Assembly: GCA_963733035.1 (NCBI GenBank)
Contig: CAVTBU010000005.1
Coordinates: forward strand, 608,001-672,000
Origin: Pirellulales bacterium
GTDB taxonomy: Bacteria > Planctomycetota > Planctomycetia > Pirellulales > PALSA-1355
Direction: 5' to 3'
DNA: 64,000 nt
Part shown: piece after piece, positions 3,470 through 47,560 of the stretch
Numbering within the stretch: position 1 is the first letter of the stretch
Layout of the letters: the number at the start of each line of letters is the position of its first letter
Translations under genes and position numbers: made by a program
The notes under the pieces: generated by a model
What the model saw: only the letters and a program-made list of their open reading frames with translations
What the model was told of the DNA's origin: nothing
Database searches by the model: none

Positions 3470-4711
3470 CTACGGCTTGTCGTCGGCTTCGAGCGAGTCG
3501 CGTCCGTCGCTGAGCCATTCCAGGTTGAACCGCGCGAGCACCTGGCTTGGCCCCGGGTATTTGGTGCCTGGGTCGGCTCGCTCGAAGAGGCAATAGATGG
3601 TGCCGTCGGGCCCGACCGCCAAATCGCTGTAGGCACTTGGACCGGCCTCGATCGTCTTGGAGACCGGCCAGCTCTTGCATCCATCGTAACTCAGCTTGAC
3701 CGTCAGATTCTTGCGATCGCGACTTTTTCCCGGCTCGGCCTTGCCCTTTTTGCGCTCCAAATTGTCCGGGTTTGAAAACAGGATGCGATTTTTGCCGCCA
3801 TCCGATGCCGTGCTCAGCCGACACATGCTAGCCATGCAAATCGGCTCAGCGAGTCCATCGTCGAACACCGGGCGTGACCAGCCGGTCGCTCCGTCCGGAC
3901 TGGTGGCGATTGCTCGTCGGTTCCTGGTGGACTCGCTGCGCATGTTCAGCAGCACACGACCATCGGCCAACTCCACGGCCACCGATTCGCTGGGGTTCAC
4001 CAGCGGATCCGTCTCACCAGTCACGATGTCTCCGCACTGCCAAGTGGCACCGTGGTCGTCGCTGTAGATCGTCGCAATTACGCTCGGTCGATGGGCGTTT
4101 CCGCCGGTAGCCGTCGATAACCAAACGGGGACCACGAGACGGCCGCCACCGAGCTGCACGCCGTGGCCCGGACCGGTGGCCAGAACTTTCCAATCGTATT
4201 GATCCCGAAACGGCTCGAACGCCGAGGTAATTTCCACCGGCTCGCTGAACGTCTGGCCGTCGTCGTCGCTACGGCGATAGAAGCAGCGCATGTACTCCTG
4301 GCAAAACAAGAAGTGCACGGCGCCGGTCTGATGGTCCGCAATCAACAGCGGATTGTTGTTCGTGACCGCCGATGGGTCTGCCAGCTTTTGCTTTAGTGCC
4401 ACCGGGTTCTTTTGGTGCGGACCATCGACCTCGGACATCTCCCGCGCCTCCGACCAGGTTTCCCCGCCGTCGCCGCTACGTCGCAGCACGATGTCAATCG
4501 CCGCCCAGTCGCCGCGGGTTTTGCGGGCCTCGCAAACTGCGAGCAAAGAACCGCCCGGAGCCATCAATAGCGCCGGAATGCGATAGCTTGGATACCCCCC
4601 CTGGCCCGCCACAAAAACGTCCTGCTTGTCGAGACGCGGTTCGGCCGATAGCGCCTGGGTGTCAAATAAAGCCCAAGTTAAAAACAAAAGCAGTATTGTG
4701 CGACGCATCAT
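3470..4711 (-). CDS. Secreted sialidase-family (GH33/BNR) protein
   Basis: Signal peptide; YRIP motif; Asp boxes SGDGGETW, SDDDGQTF, SDDHGATW, SYDGCKSW; AYSDL. Confidence 0.9.
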   Translation of the reverse strand: MMRRTILLLFLTWALFDTQALSAEPRLDKQDVFVAGQGGYPSYRIPALLMAPGGSLLAVCEARKTRGDWAAIDIVLRRSGDGGETWSEAREMSEVDGPHQKNPVALKQKLADPSAVTNNNPLLIADHQTGAVHFLFCQEYMRCFYRRSDDDGQTFSEPVEITSAFEPFRDQYDWKVLATGPGHGVQLGGGRLVVPVWLSTATGGNAHRPSVIATIYSDDHGATWQCGDIVTGETDPLVNPSESVAVELADGRVLLNMRSESTRNRRAIATSPDGATGWSRPVFDDGLAEPICMASMCRLSTASDGGKNRILFSNPDNLERKKGKAEPGKSRDRKNLTVKLSYDGCKSWPVSKTIEAGPSAYSDLAVGPDGTIYCLFERADPGTKYPGPSQVLARFNLEWLSDGRDSLEADDKP

Positions 4712-4959
4712 TGTCGACCTCGCGAGCCCAGCGGAGAGAGCAACCGTCCCCAATCGTAACTCGCCAAACTGCCGAGTAAAACCAGCAAGTGGAATTAGGC
4801 CAGCGGCGATGGTACAACAGACCTTGCCGCGAGCGGCCCGTCGTCAGACTTTCCGCTGGGGCTTTCCGTTGCCAATCTTTGATCTGCTTTCTGCGCCTCA
4901 GCATCGCTGGGTGCAAATCCAACGAACGACTCGCCAGAAACCATTTCCAGGGAGTCCTG

Positions 4960-6534
4960 ATGACCATGCATCGCAACCGCGGACTTTTGCTACTCCCAAT
5001 GTTTCTGTTGGCTGGATGTGCAGCCATTGCGGAAGCCAAACAGCCCAACATCCTGTTCATCTTTTCCGACGATCACGCCTGGCAAGCCTTGAGTGCCTAC
5101 GGCGAATCGCGGCATTTGCTCAACACGCCGAACCTTGACCGCATTGCCAACGAAGGGATGCGATTCAACCGCTGCATCGTGCCCAACTCAATTTGCGGGC
5201 CGAGCCGAGCGACGATTCTCACTGGCAAGTACTCCCACATCAACGGCTTTTACAACAATTCCAACAGCCGCTTCGATGGTTCGCAAGTGACCTTTCCGAA
5301 ACTGCTGCAAGGTGCCGGCTATCAGACGGCGATCTTCGGCAAGTGGCACCTGATTAGCGATCCGACAGGCTTTGACTACTGGCACATCCTGCCAGGGCAA
5401 GGACTCTACTACAATCCGCCGATGATCAAGAACGGCGAGCAGGTCAAGCACGAAGGCTATACGACGGACATCATTACGGACCTGACGCTCGACTGGCTGA
5501 AGTCTCGCGATAAGTCGAAGCCGTTCATGCTGATGTGCCAACACAAGGCACCGCATCGCGAGTGGGAACCGGCATTGCGTCACCTCGGTCACGACGGCGA
5601 TCGGCAACACCTCGAGCCGGAAACCCTGTTCGACAACTACTCCGGGCGAGGCCTGGCTGAGCACGACCAGGACATGACGATCGAAAAGACCATGACACCG
5701 CGCGACGTCAAGCTCGTCGCCCCCGGCAACCTCACACCCGCACAACGCGCCGAGTGGGACGCCTACTACGAACCCCGCAATGAAAAATTCCGAAAAGCGA
5801 ATTTGTCAGGCAAGGACCTGGTGCGCTGGCGCTATCAGCGCTACATGCACGACTATCTAGGCTGTATCAAAGCCGTCGATGAAAACGTCGGCAGGCTGCT
5901 CAAGTATCTTGATGATGAAGGGTTGGGCGACGATACGATCGTCGTCTACACGGCCGATCAAGGCTTCTACCTGGGCGAGCACGGCTGGTTCGACAAGCGC
6001 TGGATCTTCGAGGAATCGCTACGTACACCGCTGCTGGTACGCTGGCCGGGCGTGACCAAACCCGGAAGCACCAGTGACGCACTCGTCTCAAATGTCGACT
6101 TCGCCGAAACGTTTCTCGACATTGCCGGCATCGAGATTCCAGCGGCAATGCAGGGGCGCAGCTTCATCAGTCTGCTCGAGGGAAAGCAGCCGGACGATTG
6201 GCGAACGTCATTCTACTACCACTATTACGAGTACCCCCGACCGCATCACGTGCGACCACATTACGGCGTCGTCACAGACCGCCATAAGCTCGTACACTTC
6301 TACGGACCGGATACCGACTATTGGGAACTATTCGATCTCAAGACTGATCCGCACGAACTGACAAGTGTCTACAACGAGGCATCGTATGCCGACGTGCAGA
6401 GCGCGCTGCACGCCGAGGTGGACCGACTGCGCAAGCAGCTCAAGGTGCCCGCAGAGGAAGACCCAGCTGCATCGGGCGCCCGCCCCGGACCGCGTCAGCG
6501 TGCTCGGCAACAACAACAGGGAAAGGCATCGTGA
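4960..6534 (+). CDS. Secreted formylglycine-dependent sulfatase
   Basis: [49 protein letters not shown] before ATG 4960. Confidence 0.93.
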
Positions 6535-9089
6535 GCCGACGCACGCGGAGGCAATTCGTTCGCGAGAGCGCCGCCCTGACGACCAGCTTGGCGGTTGCGG
6601 CACATGGAACTGCCCGCGGCGCGGCACCGTCGGCAGCGAGATTTGCCAGTCGCTGGAACCAGACGGCTGATCGCGTCTGGATCGGCCCCGAGTACTGGGC
6701 GAATCCGCTCCAGGACTGGCGCGTGGCCGGTGGACGGCTTGAGTGTACGAAGGCGGCACCTGACCGACACGTACATATGCTTACCTACGCGCTTGCGAAT
6801 GCGGCTGGATCGTTGACCACTTCCATTCGCATTGGACGTTTGTCTGGTGACTTGGGGGGTGGGCCAGGTTCGGCAGGTTTTCGCGTCGGCATCACGGGCG
6901 CACTGGATGACTACCGGCATGCTTTGCTCTTTGGCCGCGGAATCGATGCCGGCATCACCGGCTCGGGCAAGCTATTTGTTGGCGACCCTTTGGCGGACGA
7001 CGCCGTCGATGTGGCACTGGCAATTCCGGAAGTCGAGTTGCGACTGGCCGCCGAGCCCGACAGAGCAAGCTACATCCTATTGCTCGAAGCCGTTGATCCG
7101 CGCTCCGGCATGTCGCTTGGCATCGTGCGACGCAAGATGCCAGCAAATCGCCTGGTTGGTCACCTGGCGGTGGTGGCCAACTATGGCTCGCCGCAAAACG
7201 GTCGCCGTCGACACCCGAAGGCCTCGCCCGGACTCGGCAGCGGCCAGTTTTGGTTTGCTGACTGGAAAGCCGTTGGTTCCAAACTTGTGGCGCACCCTCG
7301 ACGCGCTTTTGGTCCGATCCTGTTCAGCCAATACACGGTCTCGCACGGCATTCTCAAACTATCGGCACAAATGCCGCCGATTGGGCCGCATGATTCGCAA
7401 ACCGTGCGTTTGGAAGCGATGCGCGACGGCAACTGGATGCTGCTTGGCGAAAGCACCATTCATCCCGAGGCCCGCACGGCGACGTTCCGTGTCGAAGGTT
7501 GGGACGCGAGCACTGAGGTCCCGTATCGACTGCTTTATGCGCTTGTGAGCAGCGACGGAACGAGTATCGATCACGAGTGGTCAGGGATCGTGCGCCGCGA
7601 TCCTGCCGATGAGGACGTGCTGACCGTGGCCGACGTCTCGTGCAATGGCCACATGGCGTTCCCAAACGCCGAGTACGTCCAGCACATGGCGCGGCTCAAT
7701 CCCGATCTGTTGGCGTTCACGGGCGATCAGTTTTACGAATCGAGCGGTGGGTATGGCGTGCAGCGGGGACCGGTCGAAATGGCGATTCTCGACCTGTTGC
7801 GCAAATGGTATTTGCACGGTTGGACGTGGCGTGAGCTGATGCGCGATCGGCCAAGTATTTCAATTCCCGATGACCACGACGTCTATCAGGGAAACATTTG
7901 GGGAGAAGGGGGCGCGCCGCGGCACGGCACGCAGGAGATGGGTGGCTACGACATGCCGCCCGAGTGGGTTAATGTCGTGCATCGCACGCAGACGTCGCAT
8001 CATCCCGATCCATTTGATCCGTCACCCGGCAAGCGGGGCATCAGCGTGTACTTCGGCCCGCTGGTCTATGGCGGCGTGAGCTTCGCCATCCTGGCCGACC
8101 GCCAGTTCAAGTCGGGACCCGAAGGCAAGGTGCCACCGACCGGCAATCGGGGCGATCACGTTGTCGACCCCGATTTTGATCCGAAATCGGCCGATCTGCC
8201 GGGTCTGGTATTGCTCGGCGAGCGGCAGATGCAATTCCTGCACGAGTGGGTGAAGGACTGGCGCAGCGCGCGGATGAAGGCCGTCATCTCCCAAACGATC
8301 TTCACTGCCATGGCCACCACCCACGGTGCCAACCGCGAGGTGTTGCGGGCAGACTACGATGCCAACGGCTGGCCGCAAACTCCTCGCAATGAGGCGCTCC
8401 GTGAAATTCGCAAGGCTCTGGCGTTTCACATCGCCGGAGATCAGCATCTGCCGGCCGTCATACGCTATGGCATCGATTCGCATGGCGATGCGGGCGCGGC
8501 GCTGGCTGGTCCCGCCGTGAACAGCATCTATCCGCGTTGGTACCAGCCGCGCGGCGAGGCCATCGTTCGAGCGAACGATCGCTTGACTAATACGGGCGAT
8601 TTCATCGACCATTTTGGGCACCCACTCACGGTGCTGGCCGTCGCCAATCCCGCGCTACGATTTGAAGGTTCGTTGCTCGAGGTCGAGCGAGATAAAGCCG
8701 CTGGCCTGGCCCTGGTGCGGTTCGACAAACCGTCTCGGCAAGTAACGGTTGAGTGCTGGCCGCTGCTAGTCGATCCCCAGCAGTCAGGCACTCAGTTTCC
8801 CGGTTGGCCGGTCACAATCGATCCCGTGACCGATTGCACAAAGCAGGCCCAGGCGTGGCTGCCAACTCTAAAGATCTCCGGATCTCGCGAGCCGGTAGTA
8901 CAGATTTACGATCGGGCGGGCGAACTTGTTTACAATCTGCGGATTCCAGCAGGAGAATATCAACCTCCAGTCTTCGCCGCTGGGCAGTACTCTGTCCGTT
9001 TGCTCGATCCGGACTCTGGCCGTGAAATAAGACTGGAGCAGCTTACTGCCCGACCGACAAACGACGAAATTATCGAGGTCGTGTTATGA
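6531..9089 (+). CDS. Tat-exported PhoD-like metallophosphoesterase with long N-terminal extension
   Basis: SRRTRRQFV twin-arginine leader; VSCN, GDQFYE, PDDHDV, DRQFK, D.NGW and GDQH motifs; GTGA overlap with the upstream gene. Confidence 0.85.
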
Positions 9090-10929
9090 AGCGATTGCTA
9101 CTGACGGTGCTTCTTCTGGCCGTGGCACGGCCCGCGCTGTCGGTCCATGCCGACGAGCCACGACCAAACATCGTTTGGATCACCAGCGAGGACCACGGCC
9201 CACATATGGGCTGCTATGGCGACCAATACGCCACGACACCACATGTCGATGGGTTGGCCGCCAGGGGTCTCCTCTACACCCGAGCCTGGTCGAATGCACC
9301 CGTCTGCGCACCGGCCCGCACCACGCTGATTTCTGGCTTATACGCAACGTCGACCGGTGGACAGCACATGCGCAGCATGGTTCCTTTTCCGGCCGGCAAA
9401 CAGATGTTTCCCCAAATACTGCGCGCGGCGGGCTACTATTGCACCAACAACTCGAAGGAAGATTACAACCTGACTCAGCCCGGCAAAGTATGGGATGAAT
9501 CATCTCGGAAAGCGCACTGGAAAAACCGCTCGGCTGGTCAGCCGTTCTTTGCCGTATTCAACTCCACCAAGAGCCACGAAAGTCAGATCCGCCGGCGACC
9601 GCATTCCCCCGTGCACGAACCGGCCAAGGTACGTGTGCCGCCCTATCACCCGGACACACCCGAAGTACGCCGCGACTGGGCCCAATACTACGACGTCGTG
9701 AGTCTGGCCGATGCCGATGCTGGTCAACACTTGGCCGAGCTCGAACAGGCAGGCCTTACCGACAACACCATCGTGTTCTACTTTGCCGACCACGGTTCGG
9801 GCATGCCTCGCAACAAACGATGGCCCTTCAATTTGGGCTTGCAGGTGCCGCTGGTGGTACACATTCCCGAGAAGTTCAAGGCTTTGCGCCCCGCGGACTA
9901 TGCCCCTGGCGGCAAGACGGATCGACTCGTTAGCTTTGTTGATTTTGCGCCACGGTGCTCAGTCTCGCTAGTATCAAACCACCGGATTGGATGCAAGGTT
10001 ACGCGTTTCTAGGCGAACATGCCGCGCCGCCGCGGCCGTACATTTACGGCTTTCGCGGACGGATGGACGAAAAGATCGACATGGTGCGCAGCGTCACCGA
10101 TGGCCGGTACGTGTACGTGCGAAACTACATGCCTCAGCGGATTTACGGTCAGTATCTGGCCTACATGTTTGAAACGCCTACGACGCAAGTCTGGCACCAG
10201 TTGCACGTCGAAGGGAAGCTGACCGCCGCGCAAGATGCCTTCTGGAAACCCAAGCCGCCCGAGGAACTCTACGATCTGACGCACGACCCCGACGAGGTGC
10301 ATAACATCGCCGATTCCACCGAGCACAGCGAAAAGCTGGCAGAACTTCGCGAAGCGCAACGCAACCTGGCACTCAGAATCCGCGACGTTGGCTTTCTGCC
10401 CGAGGGTGAGATTCACAGCCGCAGTCAGGGCACAACGCCGTACGACATGGCCCGCGAGCCGGAGAAATATCCACTCGAGCGGATTCTGCCCGTCGCCGAA
10501 GCGGCATCCGGATTGGATCCGAAAAACGCGCCCGAGTTGGTGAAGGCGTTTGAAGACCAAGACAGCGCGGTCCGGTATTGGGCAGCATTGGGATTGCTGA
10601 TGCGCGGCAGGGCCGGAGTGCAAACGGGGCATGGTACGCTGATTTCCGCCTTGGCGGATCCATCGCCCTACGTGCGTGTGACGGCCGCCGAAGCGCTAAC
10701 AAGGTTCGGGGAACCCGCCGATCGAAACTTGGCGGTGCGGGTTCTGGCAGACCATGCCGACTGGAGTCAGCATGAGGTATTCACCGCGATCATGGCGCTC
10801 AATGCTCTGGAGCAACTAGGCGATGAAGCGGAACCACTCAAGGCTGAGTTGCGGAACCAACCAGCTGGGGACGCTCCGCACCAGCGCTATCAAGGGTATG
10901 TGAGCAGATTGCTGAAACCCAACGACTGA
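9086..10929 (+). CDS. Sulfatase with C-terminal HEAT repeats (one frameshift at ~9950)
   Basis: [18 protein letters not shown] and ADHG in ORF 9086..10012; continues [14 protein letters not shown] into ORF 9955..10929 with DSAVRYWAA and [15 protein letters not shown] motifs. Confidence 0.88.
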
Positions 10930-36943: not shown

Positions 36944-39900
36944 ATGTCGACCCATCGAATGGTCCTGGGCGGAACCAGCGCCAGTGCGAACGCCCAGCGT
37001 TTTGCACGTTCCCGCAATTTCGCTTCCAGCCTGTGGCTCGAAGCCCTCGAACAGCGTCACCTGCTGACGGCCACCGTGGTCGAAGTTACCACCACCCAGG
37101 ACGTCATCGATCCGAACGACGGCCTCGTCTCCTTGCGCGAAGCCGTGCTCGAAGCGAACGCCTCGCCGAATGATTACCAGATCGTATTGCCGGCCGGCAC
37201 GTATACCTTGACCATCCAGGGCGCCGGCGAAGATGCCGCGCTCACTGGCGACCTCGACATACTCAATAACGGCAGCATGCAGATCGTCGGTGCCGGCGCA
37301 GGCAGTACGACAATCGATGGCTCGGGATTGTTCGACCCTACGCTGGGCCATGGTGACCATATCGTCGATGTGCGCGCTGGGGCATCGCTCGATCTGATTG
37401 GCGTGATGCTTACCGGCGCGCAAACGACGCCATCGGACGCAGGAGCCATCTGTAGCTTCGCGGGTAGCCAAGTGAATCTAATTGCCAGTTCCGTCTCAGG
37501 CAACTCTGGCGTCGGAATTCTCAACTACGGCCAGTTGACCATCACTGCCAGCACAATCGCAAACAACACCGGTTGCGGGATTATCAATAGCGGTACGTAC
37601 AACCAGCCAAACGGGCGCTTGAATGTGATCGCCAGCACGATCTCGGGAGACAGCGGTAACGACGGTGGAGGTATCTACAATTCTGGTGGAGATTTGACAG
37701 TCACCTCCAGTTCAATCACAGGCAACTCCGCAACGCGCTATGGCGGCGGCATCTATAGCACCGGCCATACGTCGATCGTCAACAGCACGTTGGCACACAA
37801 CACGGCAGACCGCGGCGGAGGAATGTACTGCTTTAACGCAAGCTTCGACGTCGACACGATCGCTGACAACTCGGCAACTTTGGGAGGCGGCATCTACGAC
37901 ATCGAGGATTTGAATATCAACAACTGCACAATTCTCGATAACTCAGCTGAAAACGGCGGCGGCATTTACGGGTCCACCGATCTAAAGATCAGCGAATCTA
38001 CAATCTCCAATAACTCGGCGGGAAACGGCGGCGGCATCTACGGCTCGTCGAATCTGAACGCTACCGGCACGTTGTTTTCCGGCAATACGGCAACAGCCTC
38101 TGGCGGTGCAATGAACCTCACCGGCGTGCAGGCGACACTGACCGACTGCACGCTTTCCCACAACTCCGCTCAGGACGGCGGCGCGATATATAGTCAGTCC
38201 TTCTGGTTGACGCTCAGCAATGATCGACTACTGGAAAACACGGCGTCGGTTCGCGGTGGTGGAATTGCTGCGAAAAGCAGCATGACGATCAATGACACAG
38301 AATTGAGGGACAATTCCGCGGGCGCCGAGGGCGGCGGAATTTACGACAGCGGCAGTCTACACTGTACCGGCAGTGCATTCTCAGGTAATTCCGCCTCCGA
38401 CGGCGGGGCGGTCTACTCCCTTATTGATCTCCAGGCAACGGTCGCAAACAGCACCTTGTCGGACAACAGGGCAACCCATGATGGCGGGGGAATCTATAGT
38501 GCCGGTGGCCTTGTGGTAACCTCCAGTACACTGACGGCGAATCATGCCGACAATTCGGGTGGCGGCGTGGCCTTTGCTGGCACCCAGCAGATGTGGTTTA
38601 TCAATAGCACGGTCTCGGGAAATTCGGCGGGCGCATATGGTGGCGGAGTCTACGTCGCGCACGTCGACGGGATCAGTTACACCCACGTGGACATCTCTTT
38701 CAGCACAATCACGTTGAATCGTGCGGGTACGGGGGGTACCGATGGACGCGGCGGCGGACTCTATCTATCCGATCGTTCGTCAACTTTGTTGCAAGATTCG
38801 ATCGTGGCCGGAAATCTGCGTGAGCAATCGCAGATTGAAGTCGCCAGCGACATCGAGCTGGGGCAAAACCCGCGTCCGATCGATGCGTCGTTCAACCTCA
38901 TCGGCGATCCCAATACGGCCGGCGGCCTGGTGAACGGCGCCAGTGGCAACATCGTCGGCGATGGGAACGGACATGCTCTGAACATCAACGCCATTCTGGA
39001 TACGACGCTGGCCGACAACGGCGGTCCAACTTTCACGCACAAGCTTCTTGATTGCAGCCCGGCCATCGACGCTGGGGATCCGTCGTTTGATCCTCACCGC
39101 TTCTATCCAGCAACGAATGTGCAAACCGACCAACGACAGGATGGCTTCCCGCGGGTCAAGAACGGACGCTTGGACATCGGCGCTTACGAGGCCGACGCCA
39201 ACCCGATTGGGCCGGGCAATGTGATCACGGTGGGCACGTTCGATGACTCGTTGGCCGTCGACGGAGTGTGGTCGCTGCGGGAGGCGGTGATGTACGCCAA
39301 CAGCCATCCCGGCGACTTTACCATCCAGCTGCCGGCCGGCACCTACACGCTCACGCGCAAGGGGGCCGGTGAAGATGCCGCAGTCACCGGCGATTTGGAT
39401 ATTCTCAACAACGGCAACATCCAGATCGTCGGCGCGGCGCTGGTCAGACCACGATCGATGCCACGGGACTCGGTGACCGGATCTTTGACGTGTTGCCCGG
39501 CGCGGCGCTCGATTTGCAGGGCGTGACATTGATGGGGGGCAACGTTTCGTCGGGAAGTCATGCCGACGAAAGTGGCGGAGCGGTCCGCAACACCAGTGGC
39601 CAGGTGAGCATCACCGCTAGCACGCTATTGGGCAACCATGCCCAAGGCGATGGCGGCGGCATTTACAACACGGCCGGAACCATCACGATCAATAACAGTA
39701 CGCTTTCCGATAATTCGGCGGGTACCTTTGGAGGCGGGCTTTCCAGTGAAGCCGGCCAGGTGACGATCAGCGCCGGCACCTCGATCTCGAACAACACAGC
39801 ATACCAAGGCGGCGGCATCTCCAGTGCGAATGGAGATACCGAGGCGATCACCGATTGCTCCATCTTGAACAATAGCGCGAGTGCTTCCCCTGGAATAAAT

Positions 39901-42393
39901 ATCACCGAAAGTACGATACAAATCGACCGCGGCACGATCTCGGGAAACTCAGGCAATGCAACCGGTGCAATCTTTAATGGTTCGGGAAGCATAACGGTCG
40001 TCGATAGCTCAATCTCGCAGAACATTGGCCCCGGTTTGCAGAATTACAACGGCGAGGCAACGGTCACCGGCAGCACTATCTCTGGGAACATCGGCGAAAA
40101 CAGCGATGGCATTCTCAGTTACGGCAGCGGCTATCTCGTCGCCAGCGGCTGCACGATCTCCGATAACGGTGCCTCGGGAATTGATGGCCGAAATGTGTTG
40201 ACGCCCTCCGCTGTCGAAACAACGATCAACGGTTGCCTGTTTTCGGGTAACAAGCGCGATGGGGTCGACGTTTTTTCGGGTACGGCAGTCATCGGCGATA
40301 GCACATTTTCGGACAACGGCCGCGATGGCATTTACAATAGCGGTGACTTGACTGCGCAAGATCTGACCGTTTCCGGCAGCGGTGAACAGGGAATCTATAC
40401 GGACGGTCAGGCCACTATTTCGGACAGCATTGTCACCGGCAGCCAGAGGGGCATCGACAATCGCGATGAAATGACGCTTACCCGAGTCACGATTTCAGGA
40501 AATGTTGACGCACATTCGGCAGGTGGCATTTACACCGATGGTCTGGCAAACCTCATCGGTTGTACGATTTCGAACAACAGCGCGCCGTACGCCGGCGGGA
40601 TTCGCAATTTCGGTGACTTGATCGTTACCGACAGCACGATCTCGGGCAATCATGCCGACACCGCCTCCGGCGGATTCGAGAACTCAGGAACGGCCGTCTT
40701 TGCGGGGGTTGTCATCTCCGGAAATAGTGCGATGTACGGCGGCGGCATGCGCAATCTTGGCCAATTAACTCTCACAAATTGCACCATCTCAAACAACGCG
40801 GCGACCGAGTACGGTGCTGGCATCTACGGTCAAGACGGTAACCTGACAATCATTGGCAGTACTGTGTCGGCCAATACAGGCGATGGATTGTTTGCCTACA
40901 GCAAATGTGTTATTCAGGACAGCACCGTTGGAGGAAACTCCGGCAACGGAATTTTCCTTGTCGGTCCCGGGGCCTACCGAATCAGCAACAGCACGATTTC
41001 TGGGAACGCCGGGGGGCTTACCTACTATGCCCATTCGGATGTCGTCCTCGACAACACGATCATCGCCGGCAATAGATCATCCGACGTTGCTGGTTACTCA
41101 GGTGCGCATCTCAATCCGGTGAGTGCGTACAATCTCATTGGTGACCCCAACACGGCCGGCGGCTTGGCCGATGGTACGAACGGCAACCTTGTGGGCGACG
41201 GAAATGGGCATGTGCTCGACATTCACACGGTTCTCGACACCACGTTGGCCGACAATGGCGGCCCGACCTTGACCTACGCCCTGGTGCCGGGAAGCCCGGC
41301 GGTCAATGCGGGCGATCCAGCGTTCGATTCCAACGCAACCGATCCGCCGACGCTCTTCGATCAACGCGGCGCGGGTTACAGTCGCGTTGTTGGACGGCAT
41401 GTGGACATCGGAGCGTATGAATCTGGTGCTACGTTCCAGACGGTCGTGGCCGGCCGGCAAATCTTTTACGACAACTCGACCTTCAATGGTAACGTTTCCG
41501 GCGTTGGTCCCTTCGATGCGTTCGCCATTGCCACCGACAAACAGGCCCTGCTCCCCAATGGCAGCCTGGCCGGGCCGCAAAACGTCACCAGTTACTCGCG
41601 TGGCATTAACGGCATCATGGTCGACATCGCCGGTTCGCATCCGGATATTACGGCCGCCGACTTCATCTTCCGCGTGGGGAGCAACAACGCGCCCGATACC
41701 TGGGCGGCGGCGCCCGCGCCATCGGCCGTGGTGGTGCTGCCGGGCCAGGGAGACGGCGGATCCGACCGGGTCGAAATCGTCTGGCCCGACGGCGCGATCA
41801 AGAATACGTATCTCGAAGTGATCGTCGCGGCCGACGCCCACACCGGCCTTTCGTCGCCCGATGAATTCTTCTTCGGCAACCGCGTTGGCGACACGCTGGC
41901 AGGCACGCCGGCGAGCTATTTTGTCACCAACGCGGCCGACGAGATCGCAGCCCGCCAGTCGACGGGCGTTGCTTATCAGATAAGCAACGCTTTGGATTTC
42001 GATCGCAACGGCGTGGTCAATGCCGCCGATCAGATCATCGCCCGCACCAATGGCGGCGTCCTGCCGCGCATTCAGATTTCGCCCCCACCCGCCCCGCTCG
42101 CGCAGCCGTCAGGCACAAGCGACGCGCTGGCCAGTAAACCAAGCGCAGACCTGCAAAACGCCGTGACCGCGTCGCTGACAGTGCCGACCGAAAGTGTCAC
42201 CGCCCACGCGGAGTCACCTGCTGGGCCTGTTGTCCTGGCAAAAGCCGCTCCACTGAGCGCCGCCCAGGTCGACCGGGCCCTGGCCGCCGATTGGTCGTAC
42301 GCCGCCGACAGTCTCGACGAGCTGTTTTCAACTGGCGATGCGAACGAAGTTGACGAAACGGCGCTCGAACTTCTCGGCGATGCTCTGACGTAG
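36944..42393 (+). CDS. Very large surface protein: LEPR-XLL leader, two CSLREA-like + beta-helix + choice-of-anchor-Q-like modules, dockerin-like C-terminal domain (frameshift at ~39435)
   Basis: EALEQRHLLT; SLREAV twice; many N.A..GGGIY repeats; LADNGGPT.T..L...SPA..AG...DQR...DIGAYE twice; DFDRNGVVNAADQ; GAGG RBS. Confidence 0.88.
37130..41420 (+). repeat. Intragenic tandem module duplication (37130-37320 vs 39270-39460; 38893-39190 vs 41131-41420)
   Basis: LPAGTYTLT..GAGEDAA.TGDLDILNNG..QIVGAG and NLIGDPNTAGGL..G..GN.VGDGNGH.L.I...LDTTLADNGGPT each occur twice, differing mostly at synonymous sites. Confidence 0.9.
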
Positions 42394-42490
42394 TCGTCCC
42401 GGTGCCCAGCCCAGTTGGACGAGGAAAGCCCGATTCGGGGGTAGCGACCGGTCTCGGCCAACCATGCAGCAACAAGGCATCCGCAGAAGG

Positions 42491-42519
42491 TTGACGGCCA
42501 ACTGGCGGTGGATTAAGAT
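42491..42519 (+). promoter_or_regulatory. Sigma70-type promoter of the DUF1553-DUF1501-ROK operon
   Basis: TTGACG-N17-TAAGAT, ending 85 nt before ATG 42604. Confidence 0.7.
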
Positions 42520-42526
42520 TCGCAAT

Positions 42527-42549
42527 TACTTAATAAACACAACTAAGTA
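42527..42549. promoter_or_regulatory. Palindromic operator, likely ROK/XylR-type repressor site
   Basis: TACTTA-N11-TAAGTA, extremely AT-rich, at the predicted transcription start; a ROK regulator is gene 3 of the operon. Confidence 0.65.
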
Positions 42550-42603
42550 TCGTCGGTCGCCTCGCGACCCGTCTTTGCCGGCCGTTCCAAGGGGGGAACT
42601 CCC

Positions 42604-44862
42604 ATGAAGCGAGCATCGAACACCGCGGCGGTCAAAACTCTCGGCTTCAGCCTGCTGATGGTTGCGGTTGGGTGCTTGCCGCTGGCGGTCGCCGGTGAAA
42701 CCGAGTGGCGGGAGGACGACTTTGAGCGGCTCGTCGCGCCGATCTTGGTGACCCGCTGCCTGGAATGTCACAACGAGTCGACGGCCTCTGGAAACCTGCT
42801 GCTTACTCACGCCGAGTCTGCCCTGCGCGGCGGCGACAGCGGTGCCGCGATCGAACCGGGGAATGCGGAGGCCAGCTTGTTGATCGAGCGCGTCGCCGCG
42901 GGCGAGATGCCTCCGGAGAGCAAAGGGCGCTCGCAGCGCTTGCCCGACGAGGAGATCCTCGCCATACGACGTTGGATCTCGGCCGGCGCCAAGTGGCCAG
43001 CCGATCGGTCGCTCGACCTGTATGAACGCACGACAGCTTCTCGAGCCGGGCGCGACTGGTGGTCGCTGCAGCCGGTGCGCCGGCCGGACGTGCCGGCGGT
43101 CGAATCGAGCGCCTGGAGCGAAAATCCGATCGACACGTTTATCTTTGCGCGTTTGACCGCCGAAGGGATGACGCCGGCGCCCGAGGCCGATCGCCGCACG
43201 CTGGTGCGCCGCGTCTATTTCGATCTCCTGGGGCTTCCGCCCACGGCCGAAGAGGTCGATGCCTTCGTGACGGACGAATCTCCCTCGGCTTACGTGCAGC
43301 TGGTCACGCGTCTGCTCGACTCGCCGCACTATGGCGAGCGGTGGGCCCGCTTCTGGCTCGACCTGGTGCGGTTTGCCGAGACCAGCGGCTACGAGCGAGA
43401 CCAGGAAAAGCCCGGCGCGTGGAAGTATCGCGATTGGGTCATTCGCGCGATCAACGACGATAAGCCGTTCGATCGCTTCGTGGTTGAGCAACTGGCCGGC
43501 GACGAGCTTCCGGGCCGTAGCGAGGAAACGGTCACGGCGACCGGATTCTTGCGGCTGGGAACCTGGAACGACGAACCGAACGATCCGCAGGACTACAAAT
43601 ACGAGCGGCTGGAAGATCTGGTGCATGTGACCAGCGCGGCATTCCTGGGAACGACCGTCAAGTGCGCCCGCTGCCACGATCACAAGTTTGACCCCATTCT
43701 GCAGGCCGACTATTACCGCATCGGAGCGGCTTTCTGGCCCGGGCCGATCGAGCCGCGCGGCCGCGAGCTGCTGGGCGGACCCACGCCTGAAGAGCTGGGC
43801 TACGACGTCTTAGGTTGGACCGACGTGTCGTGCAATCCAGCGGAGTTGCACCTGCTGAAGAAAGGGGAGCCGGCGCACCCGGGCCCGGTGGTGGAGCCGG
43901 GCGTGCTGTCGATGATCCCGAGCCTGAATTACACGCAACCAGTCCCCTCGGAAGATTCGCGCACCACGTTACGGAGGTTGCGACTGGCCCAGTGGATCGT
44001 TGATCCACGTAATCCGCTCACGGCGCGCGTGTTCGTGAATCGCCTGTGGCAACACCATTTTGGACAAGGCCTGGTGCGCACGCCGGATAACTTTGGATTC
44101 ACCGGCGATCGTCCTTCGCATCCGGAACTGCTCGATTGGTTGGCCGCCGAATTCGTCGACGAGGGCTGGACGGCCAAGCGAATGCACTTGCTGATCATGA
44201 CTTCGCGCGCCTATCGGCAAGCTTCGGTTCACCCGGCACAAGAGGCGTATGAAAAACGGGACCCGGAGGTTCGCCTGTTGTGGCGGTCGGCGCGGCGGCG
44301 GTTGGATGCCGAGGCGCTTCGCGACGCAATGTTGGCCGTCGCCGGGCAGCTCGATCCGCGCGTCGGCGGTCCTAGCTTCAAGCCCGTAATCAGCCCGGAC
44401 GCGTTGCAGGGGTTGTCGAAAAAAGGTGCCGACTACCAACCCTCGCCCGCGAGCGAGCAAGGCCGACGAAGCCTCTACATGTATTCGCAGCGGAGCCTGT
44501 TGCCGCCGTTGATGACCACGTTTGATTTTTGCGACACAACGCAGCCCTGCGGACGTCGCGACGTGAGTGTCGTGGCGCCGCAGGCATTGGCCTTGCTCAA
44601 CGGCACGTTCGCCCACGAGCAGAGCACGGCGGTCGCGTCGCGCGTCATGGAATCCGCGGGACAAGAGGCTGCGGCCCAAGTGCGCGCCGCCTTTCGCCTG
44701 GTGCTGGGGCGCGTCCCGACGGAGAGCGAATCGGCCGCGGCCCTTGCGCATCTCGAGCGGCAACAGAAGCATTTTGAGTCTTTGCCCGCTGCCGAGGCTC
44801 TGGCGCTGAGGTCGCTGTGCCACATGTTGCTCAACAGCAATGAATTCATGTTTGTCGACTAG
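42604..44862 (+). CDS. Planctomycete cytochrome c (PSCyt1)-DUF1549-DUF1553 protein
   Basis: Signal peptide, CLECH...MPP, NPIDTFI, YGERWARFWLD, CARCHDHKFDP, NPLTARVFVNRLWQHHFG and HPELLDWLA. Confidence 0.95.
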   Translation: MKRASNTAAVKTLGFSLLMVAVGCLPLAVAGETEWREDDFERLVAPILVTRCLECHNESTASGNLLLTHAESALRGGDSGAAIEPGNAEASLLIERVAAGEMPPESKGRSQRLPDEEILAIRRWISAGAKWPADRSLDLYERTTASRAGRDWWSLQPVRRPDVPAVESSAWSENPIDTFIFARLTAEGMTPAPEADRRTLVRRVYFDLLGLPPTAEEVDAFVTDESPSAYVQLVTRLLDSPHYGERWARFWLDLVRFAETSGYERDQEKPGAWKYRDWVIRAINDDKPFDRFVVEQLAGDELPGRSEETVTATGFLRLGTWNDEPNDPQDYKYERLEDLVHVTSAAFLGTTVKCARCHDHKFDPILQADYYRIGAAFWPGPIEPRGRELLGGPTPEELGYDVLGWTDVSCNPAELHLLKKGEPAHPGPVVEPGVLSMIPSLNYTQPVPSEDSRTTLRRLRLAQWIVDPRNPLTARVFVNRLWQHHFGQGLVRTPDNFGFTGDRPSHPELLDWLAAEFVDEGWTAKRMHLLIMTSRAYRQASVHPAQEAYEKRDPEVRLLWRSARRRLDAEALRDAMLAVAGQLDPRVGGPSFKPVISPDALQGLSKKGADYQPSPASEQGRRSLYMYSQRSLLPPLMTTFDFCDTTQPCGRRDVSVVAPQALALLNGTFAHEQSTAVASRVMESAGQEAAAQVRAAFRLVLGRVPTESESAAALAHLERQQKHFESLPAAEALALRSLCHMLLNSNEFMFVD

Positions 44863-44906
44863 CGTGGCTACGGACGCGCGCGGGCGTAAACCTAGGGAGC
44901 AAACCG

Positions 44907-46361
44907 ATGAACTATCGACGCCTTTATCCTTGCGGACAGACGCGCCGTGAGTTTCTGTGGCAGATGGGGGGCGGGTTTGCCGGCACGGCACTGGTCAGTC
45001 TGTTGGCCGCTGACGGTTTTTTCTCCCGCGCCGCGGCAGCCGTTCCCACGGAAAGTGCATTGGCGCCTCGCACGGGACATTTTCCCGGCACGGCGCAGCA
45101 GGTGATCTTTCTGATGATGAACGGCGGCCCGAGCCAGGTCGACACGTTCGACTTTAAGCCGGCGCTAGAAAAGTACGCCGGCCAGCCCCTGCCGCCGGAC
45201 AAGAAGTTCATCAACTCGGGCGGGCGTAAGGTCGGATTCCTGATGCCCGCGTATCGAAAGTTCCGACCGGGCGGAGAGAGCGGACTATTGATTTCCGATT
45301 ATTTCCCCGCGGTTCGCGAGCATGCCGACAAGCTGGCGGTGATTCGCTCCTGTCATACCGACAGTCATGCGCACGGCTCGGCGCTGGTGGCGATGAACAC
45401 GGGCAAGACATTCATCGGCAGGCCGTCGCTCGGTAGCTGGGCCGTCTACGGTCTAGGGACCGAGAATCAGAGCCTGCCGGGTTACGTGGTGATGCTCGAC
45501 AAACGCGGCGGACCGATCGGCGGGCAACCGAACTGGTCGAGCGGTTTCATGCCGGCCGGATACCAAGGGACGCTATTCCGTCCGGCGGGCAATCCGATTT
45601 TGGATTTGCGCGGTCCAGACTACCTGGCTGGCAATCCGCAGCGAGAACAGCTCGACTTGCTGGCGCAATTGAACGATGAACATCTCAAGATGCGACCCGG
45701 CGGACAGGAGTTGGCCGCGCGTGCGGCCTCGTACGAACTGGCCTTTCGGATGCAGGCCGAGGCGCCCGAGGCCGTCGACCTTTCGCAAGAAACCGCCGGG
45801 ACTTTGAAGAGCTACGGCGTGGGCAGCAAGCCAACCGACGAATTCGGACGCAATTGCCTGGTGGCGCGGCGACTCGTCGAGCGCGGCGTTCGATTCGTGC
45901 AGCTCTATTCCGGCGGTGGTCACCTGGAAGACACCTGGGACGCGCATACGAGCATTGAAGCAAATCACTCGCAGCACGCGGCCGAGGTAGATCAACCGAT
46001 CGCGGCACTGTTGACTGATCTTGAGCAGCGCGGCTTGCTCGATACAACGCTGGTCGTGTGGGGTGGCGAGTTTGGCCGGATGCCGTTCAGCGAAGGGCAA
46101 GGCGAAAAGGGACGCAACCACAACCCCTACGGTTTCTCGATGTGGATGGCCGGCGGTGGAGTCAAAGGCGGCATTGCGTACGGCGAGACCGACGAGTTTG
46201 GGTTCGAGGCCGTGACAAACAAGGCTCACCTGCACGACATCCACGCCACGATCTTGCATTTGCTGGGCCTGAACCACGAGTTGCTAACCTACTTCCACGA
46301 AGGACGCGATCAGCGATTGACGGACGTGGCCGGCAATGTTCTGCGGGAGATCATCGCGTGA
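44907..46361 (+). CDS. Tat-exported DUF1501 protein
   Basis: TRREFL leader, GGPSQVDTFD.KP, ARRLVERGVRFV, WDAH, GEFGRMP and RNHNP. Confidence 0.95.
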   Translation: MNYRRLYPCGQTRREFLWQMGGGFAGTALVSLLAADGFFSRAAAAVPTESALAPRTGHFPGTAQQVIFLMMNGGPSQVDTFDFKPALEKYAGQPLPPDKKFINSGGRKVGFLMPAYRKFRPGGESGLLISDYFPAVREHADKLAVIRSCHTDSHAHGSALVAMNTGKTFIGRPSLGSWAVYGLGTENQSLPGYVVMLDKRGGPIGGQPNWSSGFMPAGYQGTLFRPAGNPILDLRGPDYLAGNPQREQLDLLAQLNDEHLKMRPGGQELAARAASYELAFRMQAEAPEAVDLSQETAGTLKSYGVGSKPTDEFGRNCLVARRLVERGVRFVQLYSGGGHLEDTWDAHTSIEANHSQHAAEVDQPIAALLTDLEQRGLLDTTLVVWGGEFGRMPFSEGQGEKGRNHNPYGFSMWMAGGGVKGGIAYGETDEFGFEAVTNKAHLHDIHATILHLLGLNHELLTYFHEGRDQRLTDVAGNVLREIIA

Positions 46362-47560
46362 AGCCTCCCGAACGGTCTCAATTGTTGGACCATGCCACGA
46401 CGTCCGCGATTCGACCGCGGTTGCTACGCCGGATGACGGTCCGCCGCATCTTGAGCATTCTTGTGCAGCGCGCCCCTTGCACACGAGCCGAGCTGACGCG
46501 ACTGACGGGCATCAGTGCCCCGACGGTTTCGAAAGCCGTGGCATCGCTGCTCGAGGCGGGAATCGTCGAGGAAGGCGAGGCACCGCAGGGAGCCTTGGGG
46601 CGACCGGGCAACGTGTTGCGCTTGGCACGCGCCGGAGCTCAAGTGATCGGCGTGGTTCTCGACATCAAATGCTGCGTGGTCGTTCCCGCGGCACTCGACG
46701 GCACGCTTTTTGAAGACCGCAAGATCACGTTTGCAACGCCTGGCACCTACAAACTGCTCGTCGACGAGATCGCCGAGGCTGCCAGCCAATTGATCGACGC
46801 CGATGGAGTGCGAACGCTGAGTCTGGGCCTCAGCGTTCCCGGCCTGGTCAACCGCCGCGAGGGAAGGGCCGTGTTCTCGCCCAACCTACATTTGACCGAC
46901 GGGCACTCACCGGACGACGACCTGCGTCGACGGCTGGCAATCGAGTGCGTGATGTTTCAGGAAACGCACGCCCTGTGCCTGGGCGAGAAGATGCACCGTG
47001 CTCCGGCGCTACTCGACGATTTTGCCATGCTCGAAATCAGCGCGGGCCTGGGCCTGGGAGCAATCGCCGGCGGCCGCTTGATCGAGGGACATAGCGGTTT
47101 GGCCGGCGAACTGGGCCACGTCACGGTCAGCCCCCAGGGCCGATTGTGCGGCTGCGGCAACCACGGTTGCTTGGAGACCGTGGCGACCGACTCAGCCCTG
47201 GCCCATTTGCTGTCAGAGCGGCTCGGCTGGGCGGTGGACGTGGACGAGGCGATTCGGTTGATCCGTCAGGGCGAAATCGAGGCCGAGCAGGAATTGCGCA
47301 CCGTCTGCGAGTACCTGGCGATCGCGATGGCGGCGGCCATCAACCTCTTGAACCCGGCCACGCTCTATGTACATGGCCGATTGTTCGACGCGCGCGACGG
47401 GCTGTTCGAGATGGTGTGCGAGCTGACGCGCCGCCGAGCCCTGGCACCATCGCTGGCCGACTGCCGCATTCTGCGTGCCCGCTCGACGAAAGAGCACGGC
47501 GCCGTCGCGGCCGCGATCGACCAGCTGATGAATCGGTACGGTCCGGTGATGGAGGAGTGA
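46358..47560 (+). CDS. ROK-family transcriptional repressor
   Basis: wHTH TRAELTRLTGISAPTVSK..GRP; SVPG, GLAGELGH, CGCGNHGCLET; GTGA overlap with DUF1501. Confidence 0.92.
   Translation: MKPPERSQLLDHATTSAIRPRLLRRMTVRRILSILVQRAPCTRAELTRLTGISAPTVSKAVASLLEAGIVEEGEAPQGALGRPGNVLRLARAGAQVIGVVLDIKCCVVVPAALDGTLFEDRKITFATPGTYKLLVDEIAEAASQLIDADGVRTLSLGLSVPGLVNRREGRAVFSPNLHLTDGHSPDDDLRRRLAIECVMFQETHALCLGEKMHRAPALLDDFAMLEISAGLGLGAIAGGRLIEGHSGLAGELGHVTVSPQGRLCGCGNHGCLETVATDSALAHLLSERLGWAVDVDEAIRLIRQGEIEAEQELRTVCEYLAIAMAAAINLLNPATLYVHGRLFDARDGLFEMVCELTRRRALAPSLADCRILRARSTKEHGAVAAAIDQLMNRYGPVMEE

Follow-up and report, generated by a model that had tools for sequence, protein, structure and literature searches.

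Proteins with a DUF1501 domain that are encoded beside haem proteins of the PSCyt/PSD1 type are among the largest unexplained gene families of the Planctomycetes and Verrucomicrobia. Modules of the two are known from Planctomycetes, Verrucomicrobia and Lentisphaerae; their function has been open since 2004-2012, and neither function nor regulation was settled in the descriptions by Kamneva et al. (2012, PMC3542564) and He et al. (2017, PMC5615132). The question raised by the present locus is how one such module is controlled, and by which signal. It lies in a stretch of 64,000 nucleotides from a Pirellulales bacterium (assembly GCA_963733035.1, contig CAVTBU010000005.1, positions 608,001 to 672,000 of the forward strand), the whole of which is referred to as the window, and consists of a PSCyt gene, a DUF1501 gene and a gene for a regulator of the ROK family. 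An original prediction, made from the sequence of the window, had proposed that the pair is directly repressed by the ROK protein, acting at the palindrome TACTTA-N11-TAAGTA behind a promoter TTGACG-N17-TAAGAT, and that the operon is autoregulated and inducible by a sugar. Comparison with related loci indicates that direct, autoregulated repression is well supported, and points to a different operator, a conserved 23-bp pseudo-palindrome whose best match in the window overlaps that palindrome. The elements concerned are as follows, the twin-arginine translocation signal being abbreviated as Tat and the winged helix-turn-helix as wHTH.

42604 to 44862, forward strand: PSCyt1/PSCyt2 (DUF1549)/PSD1 (DUF1553) haem protein, exported; 752 aa, with a signal peptide and two CxxCH motifs.
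44907 to 46361, forward strand: DUF1501 protein with a Tat signal; 484 aa, predicted alkaline-phosphatase-superfamily fold.
46358 to 47560, forward strand: ROK-family regulator with a wHTH, a ROK domain and the zinc motif GHx9CGCGNHGCLE; 400 aa, assuming the GTG start.
42491 to 42496, forward strand: -35-like hexamer TTGACG, a 9/12 match together with TAAGAT at a 17-nt spacer.
42514 to 42519, forward strand: -10-like hexamer TAAGAT, from direct reading and a promoter pattern match.
42529 to 42551, no strand assigned: best match to the family ROK operator (CTTAATAAACACAACTAAGTATC), with a good left arm and a weak right arm.

The gene content given in that prediction (a cytochrome c/DUF1549/DUF1553 gene, a Tat DUF1501 gene and a ROK gene) was confirmed by Pfam searches and direct reading. 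ROK proteins of the window's type number 1120 at E<=1e-30 among 8000 candidates scored from Planctomycetota and neighbouring phyla. Among them are proteins 98%, 81%, 79% and 78% identical to that of the window (P0004-P0007). They are patchily distributed across genomes, being present in 5/41 relatives (the window's genome included), 10/401 sampled genomes of the phylum and 0/3 genomes of the same genus. Loci holding an orthologue of the ROK gene were collected (n=44, window included), and at 19 of them the PSCyt-DUF1501 pair was found in the fetched DNA, in three gene orders: the pair followed by ROK (window, L095, L113, L114, L116), ROK followed by the pair (L019, L020, L021, L025, L108 and, with an intervening gene, L022, L024, L035), and the two divergently transcribed (L013, L014, L028, L030, L036, L042). 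The intervening gene encodes a ThuA-DUF7133-cytochrome c protein of 1455-1502 aa, and a giant of this kind also follows or faces the ROK gene in L026, L029, L117 and L118, where no pair was found in the fetched DNA. Genes beyond ROK, pair and giant are not conserved between loci. A metagenome scan for close relatives of the window yielded a single locus, L095, on a contig that ends inside the PSCyt gene.

A shared motif was sought by palindrome-constrained expectation-maximisation in 48 upstream regions from 35 loci. Nine loci were left out, namely L014, which has decayed, the near-duplicates L018, L033, L115 and L116, the partial or less than 35% identical L039, L040 and L119, and L095, whose promoter is missing. 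The search converged on TTcTAAAggnccTTTAgAA, with the 23-bp form tTTTgTAAAggnccTTTAcAAAa, and the predicted operator is thus a conserved pseudo-palindrome, TTnTAAA-N5-TTTAnAA, in which positions +/-4, +/-6 and +/-9 are best conserved. When each locus was scored with a matrix rebuilt from all but itself and its near relatives, and compared with 200 shuffles, 20 loci scored 14.9-27.2 bits, values reached by 0-2 of the 200 shuffles in each case, and the next best locus scored 9.3. The predicted operator is found in 19/20 loci linked to the pair or to the giant and in 1/15 unlinked loci, this one being L032, on a contig that ends 655 nt after the ROK gene; the association gives Fisher P values of 9e-8 by locus and 1e-4 by 23 lineage groups with kin collapsed, which are rough figures as kin loci are not independent. 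The predicted operator stands 5' of whichever gene, ROK or PSCyt, leads the unit, and divergent genes have it in the spacer between them. Indeed a scan of 667 kb of locus DNA at a threshold of at least 14 bits returned operon heads, a site directly 5' of the L040 ROK gene and one stray match (14.3 bits, in L117). A simple degenerate pattern had a single match in the G038 genome, at the ROK/PSCyt spacer, versus none in the control, and in a five-genome search it was uninformative in two AT-richer genomes (18 matches versus 29 in the control, and 54 versus 79). The recurrence of the triad in three gene orders with a common pseudo-palindrome at almost all linked loci supports the direct local control that had been proposed, and the placement of the predicted operator at the head of the ROK-containing unit gives comparative support to autoregulation.

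Further comparison was made within the genus of the window. The orthologous pair is present in all three ROK-less same-genus genomes (DUF1501 76-77% identical, PSCyt 50-54%); no ROK gene of this type was found in them (0/3 at E<=1e-20, and none in the 10 kb around the pair), and the 10 kb surrounding each pair held no operator, the best scores being 3.8-5.8 bits. The operator is thus present or absent along with the regulator. What the comparisons show is the gene content, the conservation of the triad, and how the predicted operator is conserved, placed and confined to these loci.

Run over the genome, a matrix built from 19 sites at other loci scores 42529-42551 of the window at 17.1 bits, which ranks fourth among 6,645,265 positions of the genome, of which only five reach 17 bits. 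Ranks 2 and 3 lie within coding sequence (a kinase gene and a TPR gene), and the position ranked first falls in a promoter that precedes a BlaI/BlaR1 pair. In the held-out test the site scores 15.6 bits, reached by 1/200 shuffles, and it is the only match of at least 14 bits in the 64-kb window. It fits all six best-conserved positions, its left arm resembles the left arms in L113 and L108, and, relative to the palindrome first proposed, its centre is at 42540 instead of 42538, a shift of 2 bp, with a 7-N5-7 and not a 6-N11-6 architecture. It starts 9 nt past the -10 hexamer and should therefore cover the transcription start. The genome has seven ROK-domain genes, only one of them of this type. 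At its clade-B DUF1501 pair (contig C9) no operator was found, the best score being 3.5 bits, nor was one found at its homologue of the ThuA giant (contig C6; best score -4.8 bits), and the regulator therefore appears to be dedicated to its own operon in this genome.

The ROK protein itself has every hallmark of a ROK repressor that was tested, as judged from its sequence. The frame ending at 47560 contains a ROK domain (PF00480, 150.7 bits versus a cut-off of 22.9) and an N-terminal wHTH (HTH_24 and MarR_2, 33 bits each, at residues 27-76 if numbered from the GTG) which can be aligned to the corresponding domains of 1z05 and Mlc. A zinc motif of the form GHx(9-11)CxCGxxGCxE is present as GHVTVSPQGRLCGCGNHGCLE, its Cys and His residues being invariant in 14/14 family sequences; the wing motif GRP is likewise invariant in 14/14 members, and its recognition helix and wing are kept in common with relatives that have the operator. 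At the place of the Asn-Asp pair of glucokinase and 1z05 stands Gln201-Glu202, invariant in 14/14 family members. Kinases carry DxGGT at the place of their ATP loop, where the window protein has LDIKCC. With the catalytic Asp and the DxGxT loop both lost, the sequence indicates that the protein is not a kinase. The ExGH motif (Glu, His) and the Glu after the zinc motif, which are sugar ligands, are retained in the pocket, and the two pocket side chains that are one carbon longer suggest a smaller or altered ligand. The equivalog cut-offs for NagC and Mlc are not reached (128 versus 650 bits and 105.6 versus 530; NCBIfam NF047937, NF049930), and on these scores the protein is neither NagC nor Mlc.

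NagC and Mlc of E. coli nevertheless provide the closest mechanistic parallels. They are repressors that bind 23-bp quasi-palindromes with AT-rich arms and a non-conserved centre (PMC4288165, PMC13482132); arginine residues in the wing of Mlc enter the AT-rich minor groove, and on ptsG the Mlc site overlaps the promoter so that RNA polymerase is blocked, which matches the placement found here (PMC13482132). The window protein has in common with them the wHTH, ROK domain, zinc motif and G-R-P wing, and a predicted 23-bp operator over the promoter or start, from which steric repression would follow. It differs in being only about 25-30% identical to them, far below the equivalog cut-offs, in its operator (TT/AA at +/-5 and +/-6 in NagC and Mlc; here +/-4, +/-6 and +/-9, T-AAA / TTT-A), in its pocket (Asn-Asp in the NagC type and His-Asp in Mlc; here Gln-Glu) and in its targets, which are genes for the phosphotransferase system or for amino sugars in the one case and for exported redox and hydrolase-fold proteins in the other. 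A second parallel is given by the Thermotogae regulators XylR, BglR, ChiR, TreR, ManR, GluR and IolR (Kazanov et al. 2013, PMC3553997); the Thermotoga ROK repressors bind 23-bp palindromic sites, from which mono- or disaccharides release them. These too are local regulators beside their target operons, with 23-bp palindromes found by comparative genomics. An Asn next to the pocket Asp is reported as kept in all Thermotoga regulators, and a change of the Asp to Glu marks the xylose sensor XylR (PMC3553997); XylR thus shares the Asp-to-Glu change with the window protein, whereas the pocket Asn is Gln here, the operator sequence is another one, and the Thermotogae targets are cytoplasmic sugar catabolism and ATP-binding cassette transporters.

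The explanation proposed is that the three genes form one autoregulated operon, which would be transcribed from TTGACG-N17-TAAGAT. The product of its last gene would bind the 23-bp AT-rich pseudo-palindrome much as NagC, Mlc and XylR bind theirs, either as a single dimer or as a dimer of dimers, and, when bound at 42529-42551 just 3' of the -10 hexamer, would obstruct transcription at initiation or in early elongation. The repressor would come off the DNA once its ROK domain binds a small carbohydrate-like effector, and derepression would then yield a Sec-exported periplasmic haem c protein and a Tat-exported DUF1501 metalloenzyme, along with more repressor. Here we infer that ROK is the protein bound at the operator, that it represses, and that its effector is a sugar. 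Direct control of the window operon by ROK is considered highly probable and repression, rather than activation, quite probable; that the effector is a carbohydrate has about even chances, and a carbohydrate context is made plausible by the mutarotase genes, PA14 and Laminin_G_3 domains and ThuA-type giant found at related loci. The explanation taken as a whole is somewhat favoured, its standing being held down by the effector step.

Several points weigh against this explanation. Control by ROK is deduced from comparative genomics; among the linked loci L021 is without an operator in the held-out test and L118 is borderline (14.9 bits held-out, below 14 in the scan of locus DNA), and the counts overstate independence because related loci are kin. 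The conservation of the right arm may in part be promoter conservation, as it resembles a -35 or -10 hexamer in many loci, yet the left arm is at a fixed 5-nt distance in every placement class and the motif is nearly absent from other promoters. The window site is the second-weakest of the 20 (15.6-17.1 bits), with a poor right arm and a second register 4 bp away (42525-42547, centre 42536) that scores 11.4 bits; and since the matrix is AT-rich, its best match would fall in the AT-rich patch of this G+C-rich spacer anyway. A soil-metagenome contig about 90% identical spans 42432-42624; the contig of the closer relative L095 ends in the PSCyt gene and does not reach the promoter, and the site may lie in either of the registers, at 42529 or at 42525. 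The main reason for caution is a quick ROK tree in which the window and L095 fall outside the two main operator clades and group weakly (84-89% in the Shimodaira-Hasegawa-like approximate likelihood ratio test) with four operator-less unlinked ROK genes, a position that fits a somewhat divergent site. Finally, the effector may not be an ordinary sugar, because Gln-Glu replaces Asn-Asp and the Asn has been reported as absolutely conserved, and Mlc is described as using no small ligand (PMC13482132).

These last two points are also the basis of the alternative that survives best, although it is still doubtful: that ROK controls the operon through 42529-42551 in response not to a free sugar but to an oxidised or modified sugar, a non-carbohydrate metabolite or a protein partner. 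The Gln201-Glu202 pair is invariant throughout the family at a position where the Asn is absolutely conserved in the ROK regulators of Kazanov et al., Mlc is governed by protein partners instead of a ligand, and the co-regulated genes encode redox proteins, a haem c protein and the ThuA-DUF7133-cytochrome c giant, so that an oxidation product is a plausible inducer. Set against this, the pocket retains ExGH and the Glu that follows the zinc motif, the Asp-to-Glu change also occurs in the xylose-responsive XylR, and the mutarotase, PA14 and Laminin_G neighbours point to carbohydrates. An aldose 1-epimerase (mutarotase) is co-transcribed with ROK in L028 and L030, PA14 or Laminin_G_3 domains are found in the ROK-linked PSCyt proteins of L028, L042 and L114, and a short-chain dehydrogenase lies under the shared promoter region in L013 and L042.

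It was also considered that the AT-rich palindromes of the window are promoter-associated sequence or chance, with ROK merely co-transcribed or regulating elsewhere. The promoter and the palindrome TACTTA-N11-TAAGTA described in the original prediction are present as stated on direct reading, and three further elements of the spacer belong here.

42527 to 42549, no strand assigned: palindrome TACTTA-N11-TAAGTA, arms 42527-42532 and 42544-42549.
42512 to 42534, no strand assigned: second perfect AT-rich inverted repeat ATTAAG-N11-CTTAAT, overlapping the -10 hexamer.
42555 to 42569, forward strand: G+C-rich hairpin GGTCGC-CTC-GCGACC in the presumed 5' leader, from an inverted-repeat search of the spacer.

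A gap of 7 nt separates TAAGAT from TACTTA. The palindrome is unique in the window (1 match at <=2 mismatches, with at least 1 match in 8/100 shuffles) and, with spacers of 9-13, unique at <=1 mismatch in a scan of the 6.65-Mb genome. When the 210-nt spacer is shuffled 1000 times with dinucleotides preserved, however, 62% of the shuffles contain a perfect 6+6 inverted repeat (spacer 0-20); the four observed give P=0.075, and the promoter-like 9/12 match has two instances in 7.1 kb versus 1.1 expected. These elements are real and, taken alone, are not statistically compelling, being barely above chance; comparison with relatives was therefore needed to decide. In orthologous operons TTGACA or TTTACA stands at places comparable to TTGACG, and a comparison of orthologous promoters found no exact copy of TACTTA-N11-TAAGTA, which was accordingly rejected as the operator in favour of the 7-N5-7 motif. 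No window-like palindrome was found upstream of the four nearest ROK-only relatives (L015, L016, L017, L023). Chance is an unlikely explanation: it can draw on the shuffle frequency, the modest score of the window site, the grouping of its ROK with operator-less relatives and the lack of an exact conserved palindrome, but the site ranks fourth genome-wide by a matrix built without the window, no other promoter-located candidate exists in the genome apart from the BlaI site, the recognition helix and wing are shared with operator-bearing relatives, and triad and operator occur together in nearly every linked locus. The second repeat, ATTAAG-N11-CTTAAT, has the same 11-nt spacing and is centred 15 bp upstream of the centre of TACTTA-N11-TAAGTA, a rarer combination for two AT-rich repeats (P=0.023); it scores poorly with the family operator matrix (-5.5 bits).

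The placement of the operators bears on whether ROK might act as an activator or dual regulator, which is about equally unlikely. At six loci the operator's right arm coincides with the -35 hexamer, and there the site overlaps the -35 region only, a position that some activators also take; in five others TTGACA lies just upstream of the operator, with the -10 hexamer inside the right arm, and the window site covers the start region, both of which are typical repressor positions. All operator positions are such that the bound protein would block RNA polymerase, and the characterised ROK regulators considered (NagC, Mlc, Thermotoga) are repressors. In five loci two operators stand in tandem, 14 bp apart (L020:7929-7965, L022:1339-1375, L024:3500-3536, L025:7827-7863, L035:6828-6864), sharing a middle half-site TTTAsTAAA that is a small palindrome in its own right; the 14-bp offset and the shared half-site suggest that two ROK dimers sit on the same face of the helix, forming a dimer of dimers like that of Mlc. 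In the window no such second site of the family type was found 14 bp upstream (-6.2 bits).

The site ranked first in the genome (G000 contig C7:276785-276807, L120:4286-4308) is a strong AT-rich palindrome, CTTAGTAGATTTAGTTTACTAAA, which overlaps the -10 hexamer of a TTGACA-N17-TAGATT promoter upstream of genes for a BlaI-type repressor and a BlaR1 (M56) sensor-protease, and it is probably the BlaI repressor's own box. That the palindromes of the window are bound by another repressor, perhaps one of the BlaI/MecI type, is very improbable. In favour of this, similar AT-rich palindromes serve other repressors in this genome, as the best match indicates; against it, the motif tracks the ROK gene across taxa and is absent from the promoters of the orthologous pair in all three ROK-less genomes of the genus.

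Repression of the operon by ROK, if correct, would govern two proteins that have the features by which the module was described (Kamneva et al. 2012), a twin-arginine DUF1501 protein adjoining a CxxCH protein with PSCyt1, PSCyt2 and PSD1 domains. The PSCyt protein, whose ATG at 42604 was read directly, matches PSCyt1 with 53 bits, PSCyt2/DUF1549 with 290 bits and PSD1/DUF1553 with 313 bits, has a signal peptide, and carries its CxxCH motifs at residues 52-56 and 354-358. The DUF1501 protein (Pfam match 520 bits) has the twin-arginine motif TRREFLW, of which R13, R14 and F16 are invariant in 15/15 sequences. Searches of PDB sequences with either protein gave no match at E<=0.01. A structural model of DUF1501 was built from a 15-sequence alignment, and because it is of low confidence (mean predicted local distance difference test score 58.7, predicted template modelling score 0.66) it was used at the fold level only. 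It resembles ENPP6 (5ege_A; VIA-align Z 15.4, root-mean-square deviation 3.8 A over 238 residues) and sulfatases (Foldseek E 2.9e-5, template modelling score 0.30-0.34), so that at the level of fold DUF1501 would share the core of the alkaline phosphatase superfamily (nucleotide pyrophosphatase/phosphodiesterase and sulfatase). The formylglycine sulfatase signature C/S-x-P-x-R after the first strand is not present in its sequence; G73, P75, S76, D79 and T80 are invariant at that place, and a metal site would agree with the Asp, Thr, Ser and His residues found to be invariant. The description of the pair as a haem protein with a hydrolase-fold partner fits the CxxCH motifs and this low-confidence model.

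The window's genome contains about 60 DUF1501 loci and 48 PSCyt loci, counted as tblastn high-scoring segment pairs that reach 200 aa or more. A quick tree of 48 DUF1501 proteins places the ROK-linked members in two clades with full support, the first comprising the window, L095, L108, L113 and L114 (the last three from complete genomes) and the second comprising seven loci from several phyla together with the paralogue on contig C9 of the window's genome. The pair resembles the known modules in its two genes, Tat signal, CxxCH motifs, occasional domains of the carbohydrate-binding-module type and many paralogues per genome, and it differs in that two DUF1501 clades are tied to a dedicated regulator and a predicted operator. 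In the Gemmataceae the ThuA giant, PSCyt and DUF1501 lie in a single operon behind one predicted operator. It can tentatively be suggested, as a rather unlikely extension of the proposed mechanism, that the ROK regulon is a periplasmic pathway for a small carbohydrate, in which the dehydrogenase-like ThuA-DUF7133-cytochrome c giant, PSCyt and DUF1501 act on one substrate; mutarotase and lectin-type domains would be optional extras, and the ligand of ROK perhaps a pentose-sized sugar (Asn to Gln, Asp to Glu). If true, each of the roughly 60 PSCyt/DUF1501 pairs per planctomycete genome would be a substrate-specific oxidative carbohydrate-processing module, and the ligand of the window ROK would name the first substrate for the whole superfamily.

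Already known are the DUF1501/PSCyt module and ROK repressors that act at 23-bp palindromes beside sugar operons; what appears to be new, from the sequences compared, is the link of ROK to the module, together with its predicted operator and the connection to giants of the ThuA-DUF7133-cytochrome c kind, that is, a new regulon of a known type of regulator. The word ROK does not occur in Kamneva et al. (2012, PMC3542564; 0 occurrences), and full-text literature searches, outside whose scope lay the supplements of the module papers and most DUF1501 papers beyond their titles, returned no paper linking ROK regulators to DUF1501/PSCyt modules. Given a dedicated repressor that senses a ligand, and an operator defined for it, the substrate could be sought in a bench screen, for a compound that releases ROK from the 23-bp DNA; the operon also supplies a reporter promoter and hence an experimental handle on a large orphan family, and the regulator ties the pair to the ThuA-DUF7133-cytochrome c proteins, another large orphan family of these bacteria.

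With regard to the ROK start codon, the likeliest is GTG at 46358, which is in frame and overlaps the DUF1501 stop TGA (46359-46361), so that translational coupling of ROK to DUF1501 through GTGA is possible; alternative in-frame starts are TTG at 46382 and TTG at 46385, and in L095, the closest locus, the ROK ATG stands 38 nt past the DUF1501 stop, where the corresponding codon in the window is ACG. A hairpin with a T-run at 45000-45018, within the 5' end of the DUF1501 gene that encodes the Tat signal region, is probably a chance occurrence, because the terminator scan gave 8 sites versus 7.2 expected. The operon is closed by a convergent PDZ gene and is separated by the 210-nt spacer from two genes on its upstream side. 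These lie directly upstream on the same strand (36944-42393), overlap by 37 nt and encode two large right-handed beta-helix proteins with Chlam_PMP repeats, a NosD-like region and a choice-of-anchor Q domain; they were not found adjoining the triad at other loci.

Three of the related loci have peculiarities of their own. In L029, from a Verrucomicrobiaceae metagenome-assembled genome, a DUF1552 gene and a PSCyt1/PSCyt3/PSD2-5 gene (3642-7475) are divergent from ROK, with a predicted operator at 7543-7565 between ROK and the DUF1552 pair and the ThuA giant downstream; the ROK type therefore also serves a second orphan module. L014 (G012:C1:27500-39500) is a decaying triad, with an internal TGA in the ROK frame, a PSCyt match that starts only at query residue 210 and a DUF1501 match in two pieces. 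In L020 the 375-nt spacer between ROK and PSCyt (9152-9528) holds a long inverted repeat, GGTTTTCAACCC...GCGCTAACTTACG / CGTAAGTTAGCGC...GGGTTTTCAACCCC, which looks like an inserted repeat element.

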